A stretch of DNA of 64,000 bases from Escherichia coli (GTDB lineage: Bacteria; Pseudomonadota; Gammaproteobacteria; Enterobacterales; Enterobacteriaceae), in NCBI RefSeq assembly GCF_036507355.1, contig NZ_AP027877.1. One strand, given 5' to 3'. Below, in pieces: positions 22,613 through 25,600 of this stretch. The position numbers are program-made. The stretch's first letter is position 1. The number at the start of each line of letters is the position of its first letter.

Positions 22613-25600
22613 TAAATTTAATGAAGCATCTATCGCCGGTTACGATGCTTTGCTTAACGCAGCCTGAGCCTGTATATAAACTTGTCATTTCCTGATTTTG
22701 ATATGCACATTCCAACATCAGAAGAAGGTTAAATTATGGATGACAAACCATTGCAGGCTCTGGCCAATAAACTCAAAACACCGGCTCAAGAAAGTCAGCG
22801 TAATGGCTTCTTCCGACTGCAACAGGTGAAGAATAACCAGCCCCGCATTACCGGTATCCCCGTCAACCATCAGGGGCCCCAGCCTGACATCGCCTGAACA
22901 TATTCCCCCACGCAACCTGCCGCGCTGACGTAGCCCACGCAATACGCGTTTCATCCGCCTATAGCACCGGATGCATGAGCGATTTCTTATAGTTATTCCT
23001 TTGCTTAATAACGATTATTTCCGGGTCGTTCGCTCTCGTATTTTCTTTAATACGTCAGAGCTACCTGGGCCGTAATACAGCATGTACCAGACCTGACACG
23101 GCATTTCTGACCAGGGAAAAAGTCAACGATGAGTAGTTATATCAGCGCAAATGACGTCCTGTGGCTCCTTTGCGGTGACCACATTCACGTCTCCGGCGCT
23201 GCCAGAGGATATTTATTTCAAGGATACGTAGCATTATGGCTAGCTTTAAAGACATCTGCCCATTCGCCCCCGCTATTCCCCCATCTTCCGTTAACACAGG
23301 CGTACGACGCCCGCCAAGGCGGCTCTTCCTGTCGGTGGAACTCAAGAATCAAATTTTGCAGAACATGAAGTATCTCAGCCCGCAAAAATTCAGCTGGGGT
23401 GATGCCCCCTGGCAGATCATTGACCTCAGTATCGCGGGCAAAGTGAACATACAGGTGGACAACAATACCATCATCACGTTGGGGACTCCCCTGAATCCGC
23501 AACATAACGAGTTCATGATGGTCGCCGAATGGTGCCAATGGGCTATGGAGCGGGAAGGTTTGCAAGAAAACCTGCAAAAAAAACTGCACGACGTCCTGGA
23601 AGAAAACCGGCAAAACAAACAGTCAGAAATTCCCCAAGAAGACCTGAAAGAAAGACTGAAAGAAATCAAGGAAGATATCCTGGAAGAAAACCAGTCAGCA
23701 AGCCAGATTGAAGACCGGGCAGAAGCATTGCGCAGAATGAAGGAATGTCTCATAACAAGACAGAGTATGCTCGATCTTAGCAACCTTGGACTGACTTCAC
23801 TCCCTGAAAATTTGCCTCCACATCTGATTGAATTTAACTGCAGTAGAAACGTGTTGACCGCCTTACCGGAGGTAATGCCAAAGGGGCTGAGAGTGCTTGA
23901 ATGTATGGAGAACTTTTTGATCTTGTTACCGAAGGTGCAGCCCCCGAAACTGATGGTACTGAAGTGCTATGAAAACTATATTATCTGGCTGCCTGAGCTG
24001 TCGACTAACCTGAGAGTGATTAACTGTTCTGAAAACTTCTTGCAATTTTTACCGCCGTCGATGCCCCAGTACCTGTATAAACTGTCCTGTGCTGGCAACA
24101 ATATTAACTCAATACCTGATGAGGTGCTTGAGAACTTGACTCGCCTGAAGGTATTTGACTGTTCTAGTAACGATTTGATCTCTTCACCACGGCTGCCGCC
24201 CAAACTAATCATATACTACTGTGGAGAAAACCAGTTTAAAACTGTACCGGTGCCGCAGCCCCGAAGCCTGAAGGTGTTTAGCTGTAATGGTAACCCGTGG
24301 GACAAAGACAATTTACCGACGCTGCTCAAAGCCGTCGAGGGCCTGAAAAACCAGGAGGGTCTGGAGGAGCTTTTGGACTTTTTGCACAAGGAAAGTCTGG
24401 TTGACCCGGAGGAACTGGAGAAGCTGGAGGACCTGGATGACCTTATGGATCTGGAGTTCCTGGATGACCCGGAACTCCTGGAGCGCGTGAAGGTACAGGA
24501 GGACCTGGAGCTCCTGGATCAACAGTTGGGCCTGTTGAGTCTGGAAAGACAACAGGACTCGCAGCCTGTTAATCAACAATCTGAACATGAACCCGAATCT
24601 GCATCAAGGGTGAAGCGTGATTTATCTGAAGTCGATTCCGAGTCAACAATGAAGCGTAAGCGTTTTATGTAGAACGCCTGTGCGGTGAGTTCAGGTTCCG
24701 GGGAAATAGTGTCCATCATTTTAATGGGCACTATCATGGGCAATGGCTCTGTCACATTAACAACTACAGTTGCTGACCAGCCGGATGGATGATTTTTTTT
24801 GCAACCAGAAGACGTTGCCTCCGATCCGGCTTACAACAAGTTACACCGTCACAACCGGGACACGTAACGCCAGCGCGCACATCAACTCATAGCCCACCGT
24901 TCCGGCAGCGGCGGCGACATCATCAATTTTGATCTCCTTGCCCCACAGCTCAACCGGCGTACCAATACCCGCCTGCGGGCAAGGCGTTAAATCGACCGCC
25001 AGCATATCCATCGAAACTGTCCCTACTGTCATGGTGCGCACGCCGTCCACTAAAACAGGGGTGCCGGTAGGCGCATGGCGCGGATAACCGTCGGCGTATC
25101 CTGCGGCGACAATGCCGATTCGCTGTTCATCTCGCGCAGTATAGCGACCGCCGTAGCCCACACGCTCGCCCGCTTTTAGCGTCTGGACACCAATAATCTC
25201 ACTGCTTAGCGTCATCACCGGACGTAATCCGGTATTGGCGATATCACGCCACTGACCGGACGGCGAAGCGCCATACAAAATAATGCCAGGCCGAACCCAG
25301 TCAAAATGCGCTTCCGGGTGCCACAGAGTCGCCGCCGAATTGGACAACGAACGCCGACACTCCAGCCCTTCCGCCGCCTGCTCAATACGCGCCATCGCGC
25401 CGGAAATTCCATCAGGATGTTCCGCCTCGGCAAAATGCGACATCAGGGTCATTTCGCCAACATTCGCCATCGCCCGCAACTGCTGCCAGACGGTAAGTAC
25501 GCGATCGGGCTGGAAGCCCAACCGATTCATCCCGCTGTTCACTTTAAGATAAATATCCAACGGCGCTTTTAGCCGCGCATTTTGCAGTGCTTTGAGCTGC

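Follow-up and report, generated by a model that had tools for sequence, protein, structure and literature searches.

The best described counterparts of the sequence considered here are insertion sequences (IS) of the IS256 family related to IS1414. Decay of IS1414 by deletion and mutation is reported to be common (PMC12585946), and one such remnant is on record in Escherichia coli K-12. In the ycgR-emtA-ldcA-cvrA / dadX-dadA neighborhood, the MG1655 record annotates a left-end stub between dadX and cvrA as 'IS1414 (partial)'. The transposase ATG of this stub is the start of ymgM (b4740; 67 aa, MDDKQLQAQAAF...), whose coding sequence overlaps the cvrA 3' end in antisense. YmgM has been detected by chromosomal SPA tagging and immunoblot (VanOrsdel et al. 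2018; PMC6001520, Table 1). A further small open reading frame (ORF) associated with IS1414 is that of the small toxin EAST1 (astA), located at about nt 788 of the element in another frame of the transposase gene.

We analyzed a stretch of 64,000 nt from an E. coli genome (contig NZ_AP027877.1), referred to here as the window, which includes the same neighborhood. The cvrA gene (plus strand) ends at 22615 and dadX (minus strand) ends at 24841, leaving about 2.2 kb between them. This interval contains an LRR gene of 478 codons (23236-24672, plus strand; Pfam LRR_4). In NCBIfam, its product matches the SlrP and SspH2 models only in part, over their LRR regions, and far below the cut-offs, and a literature search on this LRR locus found nothing relevant. 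On the same strand, 338 nt upstream of the LRR gene, is an ORF of 53 codons that extends from an ATG at 22736 to a stop ending at 22897 (translation MDDKPLQALANKLKTPAQESQRNGFFRLQQVKNNQPRITGIPVNHQGPQPDIA). The motif AGAAGG occurs at 22723-22728, 7 nt before the ATG. An earlier, sequence-only reading of this DNA had reported this ORF, with a suitably spaced AGAAGG, and suggested that it may be a remnant or may serve the LRR gene as a small partner or regulator. We reproduced its coordinates, length, peptide, and motif exactly. The remnant alternative was the right one and can now be specified. Given a terminal repeat and colinear, in-frame homology, the ORF is very probably a pseudogene fragment, the 5' stub of an IS256-family (IS1414-like) transposase gene.

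The length of the ORF and its Shine-Dalgarno (SD) sequence are not by themselves beyond chance expectation. The window contains 191 ATG-initiated ORFs of at least 53 codons versus 42 of at least 200 codons, and a 4-nt SD core is found 5-12 nt upstream in 8 of the 106 ATG-initiated ORFs of 45-70 codons. What is non-random is the homology of the SD, the ATG, and the first codons to the start of an IS transposase gene. Specifically, GAAGGTTAAATTATGGA is identical in the window, an IS copy (L005), and the K-12 ymgM stub. The AGAAGG on the plus strand was inherited from the transposase gene, which explains the good ribosome-binding site of the ORF.

The kinship was recognized at the nucleotide level. 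Searched with positions 22690-22960, a DNA database of 28 Gb returned the expected orthologous loci, along with thousands of matches to the first ~84 bases only (22691-22774; 80-88% identity). The latter are the 5' ends of genes annotated, across E. coli genomes, as 'IS256 family' or 'IS256-like element IS1414 family' transposase (best E value, 4e-18). Two IS copies retrieved from these matches (L004 and L005) were used for pairwise comparison by blastn, and the reference transposase was confirmed as belonging to the IS256 family (PF00872, 3.9e-111; NF033543, 9.4e-121). A search of a collection of 5.8 billion proteins with the 53-aa sequence recovered only 'hypothetical proteins' of E. coli or other Enterobacteriaceae from the same locus. 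The transposase kinship is invisible at the protein level because only about 12 + 9 + 20 residues survive. Similarly, Pfam and NCBIfam searches assigned no family to the 53-aa product, which is too short to match PF00872 or NF033543.

Overall, the stub occupies 22666-22857 on the plus strand and comprises the left end of the element with internal deletions. Its first block (22666-22773) spans the outermost base of the IS, the 5' UTR, the SD, the ATG, and the first codons, and is 80-84% identical to the two IS copies (E values, 3e-28 and 8e-23). The second block (22799-22857) is also 80-84% identical (E value, 8.6e-10), colinear with the first, and in the transposase frame. Because low gap costs broke up the middle of the ORF excessively in a global nucleotide alignment, ungapped BLAST blocks were used instead. 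Codons 1-12 of the ORF correspond to transposase codons 1-12 (first block, MDDKPLQALAN versus MDDKQLQALAN). Codons 13-21 correspond to transposase codons 17-25, past a 12-nt deletion between two CTGGCYAA repeats, and codons 22-41 correspond to transposase codons 84-103, past an in-frame deletion of 174 nt (second block, RNGFFRLQQVKNNQPRITGI versus RDGSFEPQLVKKNQTRITGM). The ORF is thus transposase derived through codon 41; codons 42-53 have no IS counterpart and are unrelated sequence up to the first stop.

The left boundary is precisely defined. In three independent IS copies the common sequence starts at GAGCCTG and the upstream flanks are unrelated, and this boundary falls exactly at 22666 in the window. 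The left terminal inverted repeat (GAGCCTGTATATAAACTTGTC...; 22666-22690, plus strand) abuts cvrA-proximal intergenic DNA with its outer end. Its first 20 nt (GAGCCTGTATATAAACTTGT; 22666-22685) match the left end common to the three copies, and the repeat pattern occurs only once in the window and was never found in 100 shuffled sequences. On the other side, searches of 22858-23235 for a right inverted repeat, a target duplication, or further IS sequence gave scores no better than those of shuffled sequences.

Compared with IS1414 and other IS256-family elements, the window thus retains the left terminal repeat (GAGCCTGTAYATA...), the 5' UTR, the SD, the ATG, and three segments of transposase in their original order and frame, 192 of about 1313 nt in all. 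Unlike those elements, it has no DDE catalytic domain, right repeat, target duplication, or astA. With the transposase ending at codon 103 of about 400, two internal deletions, and no right end, an intact IS is excluded, and we consider this a dead remnant. Its decay by deletion is typical of IS1414 (PMC12585946). Since identity to the IS copies found does not exceed 80-87%, the parent of the stub is a relative of IS1414 and not IS1414 itself. We also considered whether the ORF is EAST1, but the part of the element that includes nt 788 is absent from the retained blocks, and no EAST1 motif occurs in 22601-23240.

From the anatomy of the stub we can propose its history. An IS1414-related element of the IS256 family would have inserted just downstream of cvrA, with its left inverted repeat at 22666 and pointing toward dadX. 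Subsequent decay would have involved the 12-nt deletion between the CTGGCYAA repeats, the 174-nt deletion, and loss of everything past transposase codon 103, including the whole DDE domain and the right inverted repeat. What was left would be a 192-nt stub that kept the 5' UTR, the SD, and the ATG of the transposase gene. Both internal deletions would have been in frame by chance, so that 41 transposase-derived codons came to be followed by 12 unrelated codons up to the first stop.

The K-12 form of the locus has a different, second stub. K-12 largely lacks the 2.2 kb and keeps only the dadX-proximal ~240 bp. These include the LRR gene's stop and its last ~23 codons (24600-24672 in the window, plus strand), the only part of the gene kept in K-12-type genomes, which implies that the short form is a deletion derivative. 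The earlier description of the interval as inserted DNA therefore holds only relative to K-12, and the window form is not a recent insertion. In K-12 this tail is joined directly to the left end of an IS1414-type stub in the opposite orientation, pointing toward cvrA. Identity between this stub and that of the window is 84% over 101 nt, against 97% for the flanks. On the cvrA side, the K-12 junction lies within the heptamer GAGCCTG, with which the window stub begins (first 7 nt) and which is also found, in reverse complement, at transposase codons 7-9 of the K-12 stub. In an ancestor resembling the window, a second IS would have entered the LRR gene at its 3' end, and a deletion at this microhomology would then have removed everything between the two GAGCCTG copies. 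We infer that the K-12 form arose in these two steps.

The two stubs resemble each other in locus, in being left ends, and in supplying a transposase SD and ATG from which a short, chimeric ORF runs; the encoded peptides agree at 8 of their first 10 residues. They differ in orientation and in insertion point, the K-12 stub having inserted into the LRR gene at its 3' end. Past the start, YmgM is encoded antisense to cvrA, but the ORF of the window continues through transposase remnants. The segment encoding the last 48 residues of K-12 YmgM, ending DNRCRA*, is present in the window (22487-22633, minus strand, antisense to the cvrA 3' end) and has no IS-derived start there. We therefore rejected the ORF as a YmgM orthologue, given that only the first ~10 residues are common and that orientation and insertion point differ. 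One locus thus has two independent stubs, in opposite orientations, each opening a small ORF: YmgM in K-12-type genomes and the 53-aa ORF in LRR-type genomes.

Variation among E. coli genomes bears directly on whether the ORF is maintained. Of 5426 complete genomes, 834 have the full 2.2-kb segment and about 831 the ORF region. Alleles retrieved from across the identity range fall into several classes. The 53 codons of the window type were found in L001-L003, L016, and L017. In L013-L015 the 53 codons are retained and the SD is altered from GAAGG to GAAAG. Codon 27 (22814-22816, plus strand), which is CGA in the window, is TGA in the most common allele class of other E. coli (R27*; L011, L018, and L019). 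R27* also occurs together with a 1-nt deletion that shifts the frame (L008, L020, and L021) and with a 150-bp deletion (L010). Other alleles have lost the stop and extend to 65 codons (L009), or have 50 codons following compensating indels (L022). In L007 (typical O157:H7), a deletion of 1.83 kb begins just past the SD, takes out the ATG, and ends within the 3' end of the LRR gene. By exact matching, the 49-nt TGA allele occurs in at least 287 genomes and the 56-nt CGA allele of the window in 109, and the 150-bp deletion affects about 130 (831 minus 701). The ORF is broken in most E. coli genomes that carry the stub. The sequence-only reading had named stops or frameshifts at orthologous positions as evidence against its proposal, and the observed R27*, frameshift, 150-bp deletion, stop loss, and SD loss are such changes.

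Neither conservation of frame and length nor an excess of synonymous changes, as expected for a conserved small protein, is seen. Single-base changes segregating in the ORF comprise 7 synonymous, 16 nonsynonymous, and 1 nonsense, which is not the signature of a maintained protein. The per-site ratio is 0.69, from only 24 changes, and is formally compatible with weak constraint. In a large protein collection, the products called at this locus are 29-86 aa long and lose their similarity to one another past residue ~31. Their first ~26-31 residues are nearly invariant, as expected for alleles that differ by only 1-7% in nucleotide sequence, and six amino-acid changes still segregate there. To look beyond E. 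coli, we searched for the LRR protein in one genome per species, and obtained a single match, a 2-kb contig labeled as a Collinsella metagenome-assembled genome (MAG). This contig is E. coli-like (cvrA end, stub, and LRR gene), also carries R27*, and is uninformative as a second species.

Taken with the stub anatomy, the loss of frame suggests that the ORF has no maintained function and would yield at most an incidental peptide. Such a peptide may be made because the inherited start site is probably still usable, and a function of a 26-53-aa peptide retains a small likelihood. We consider it possible, with a likelihood somewhat short of even, that the ORF is translated as an incidental or young chimeric small protein, as is K-12 YmgM. 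This proposal is compatible with a remnant origin and is a separate claim about expression; a selected function of the peptide would be absent or only nascent. Pointing in this direction, the K-12 stub from which ymgM starts has the same SD, spacer, and ATG, and YmgM is visible by immunoblot as an SPA fusion (PMC6001520). In addition, the initiation region is weakly structured (z = +1.4), so the start is not buried in RNA structure. The ORF also lies downstream of cvrA on the same strand, with no terminator-like site on the plus strand in 22550-23300. Against it, a scan of the same interval found no plus-strand promoter-like site, and the candidate extended -10 of the intact IS (TGATATGTT) would correspond to TGATATGCA here. 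Furthermore, most carrier genomes would yield a product of at most 26 aa.

An alternative that we regard as unlikely is that the stub matters as DNA or RNA, providing the LRR gene with a promoter or 5' leader, or cvrA with a 3' UTR. The transposase promoter region of the stub would read toward the LRR gene, and no terminator-like site on the plus strand intervenes. Also, the left end up to the SD is kept even in O157:H7, in which the rest is deleted. However, the lack of a plus-strand promoter-like site counts against this possibility as well. There is no Rfam family (a scan of 22500-23400 gave only a chance-level match), and alleles with a 150-bp deletion, a 29-bp indel, or many substitutions show that the region tolerates change.

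The K-12 precedent invites a broader proposal, to which we give very little weight. Left-end stubs of the IS1414 type would be portable start cassettes, supplying a promoter, an SD, and an ATG, and would repeatedly give rise to chimeric small proteins that are expressed. The intact 53-codon allele might then be a young, lineage-specific small protein with some activity, such as an effect on the adjacent LRR gene or on transposition of IS1414.

The other possibility raised by the sequence-only reading, that the ORF functions as a small partner of the LRR gene or regulates it, is barely credible given the allele data. It would fit with the shared strand, the distance of 338 nt, and the good SD. 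The LRR gene is open in L001, L002, L008, L009, and L010, and thus remains full length (478-479 codons) where the ORF has R27* and a frameshift (L008) or R27* and the 150-bp deletion (L010). Conversely, the ORF is intact in L003, in which the LRR gene has an internal stop. It follows that the ORF and the LRR gene are not co-maintained, and the proposal fails by the measure set out when it was made. The derivation of the ORF sequence from transposase, the mix of substitutions given above, with no purifying selection seen, and the lack of any relatives found outside this E. coli locus also argue against a partner.

The weakest candidate is a gene on the opposite strand, an antisense ORF of 78 codons (22718-22954, minus strand). 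L001, which does not differ from the window in this DNA, has it annotated as WP_124788773.1, and L008, L009, L016, and L018-L021 have related calls. However, this ORF varies from 50 to 95 codons between alleles, has no Pfam or NCBIfam family, and lies antisense to the transposase remnant on DNA that is annotated on the plus strand elsewhere. It is almost certainly not the real gene and is probably spurious too. The plus-strand ORF, for its part, is annotated by PGAP in some RefSeq genomes as a hypothetical protein (WP_001312759.1; L002 and L003), and the earlier statement that it is unannotated and would be missed by routine calling does not hold generally. Calls by PGAP on opposite strands of identical DNA are typical of marginal calls.

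The transposase stub remains our preferred explanation, and its value is largely one of clarification. It accounts for the occurrence of a short ORF with a textbook ribosome-binding site at this position, identifies the RefSeq 'hypothetical protein' calls on both strands as calls on a transposase remnant, and removes a candidate partner of the LRR gene from consideration. The ORF is real as sequence and, as biology, is an ordinary remnant of a mobile element. More broadly, the start of YmgM at the transposase ATG of the sister stub indicates that IS remnants can seed expressed small ORFs, and detection of the product of such an ORF does not by itself imply a maintained gene.

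The segment between cvrA and dadX differs among E. coli lineages, and the typical O157:H7 locus examined here (L007, strain 1130) lacks 1.83 kb of it, corresponding to window positions 22729 to ~24561. The ends of this O157:H7-typical deletion fall directly after the Shine-Dalgarno sequence of the IS1414-like stub (AGAAGG, 22723-22728) and at the 3' end of the LRR gene. Window-type sequence of the 53-codon ORF (22736-22897, + strand) is kept in one O55:H7 strain and in one O157:H7 strain (PV15-279). The K-12 arrangement was compared at L006 (a K-12-type locus, 2474-2620) with window 22660-22672 and ~24600, and it can be derived in two steps from a window-like ancestor. 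A second IS1414-type element, inverted, would have inserted into the 3' end of the LRR gene, and the stretch separating two GAGCCTG heptamers would then have been deleted; in the window, this heptamer forms the first 7 nt of the stub.

The K-12 small protein YmgM (b4740; NC_000913.3 1240188-1240463) is a chimera: approximately its first 10 codons come from an IS1414 transposase start, and the remainder reads antisense through the 3' end of cvrA. The window carries the coding sequence for the same tail (22487-22633, - strand; 48 residues) with the start codon absent. PGAP places a 48-aa "hypothetical protein" opposite the cvrA 3' end in four related loci (L001, L002, and L009, which carry the stub and LRR gene, and L007), and in all four it calls cvrA a pseudogene "missing C-terminus" (cvrA 3' end ~ window 22550-22633). 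In L001 and L002, cvrA is a full-length ORF with no internal stops, the same as in L003, where the gene is annotated as intact. The pseudogene call looks like an annotation artefact tied to the YmgM-tail call. An E. coli cvrA end followed by the stub and LRR gene also occurs on a 2-kb contig filed under a Collinsella MAG (JAIJJM010000586.1), probably a binning contaminant.

The spacer that separates the stub from the LRR gene varies in length at window ~22946 and ~23075: other alleles contain a 29-bp segment flanked by GCGTTTCA repeats, and L009 has an additional 19-bp insertion farther along. The indel polymorphism at ~22946/~23075 is consistent with unconstrained spacer DNA in this interval.

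The LRR gene (23236-24672, + strand) gives partial matches to two type III effectors, SlrP (E = 5e-22) and SspH2 (E = 6e-19), in their LRR domains; both matches are far under the family cut-offs. No match to an E3-ligase domain was found in the gene. Near its end is an acidic tract of LE/D repeats with 9-nt periodicity (24343-24531), and the product closes with a basic tail, KRKRFM. Within E. coli, protein identity between LRR alleles is only 83-85% and pN/pS is 0.7-0.8, yet the reading frames are open. By these allele comparisons, the LRR gene is evolving unusually fast for a chromosomal gene.
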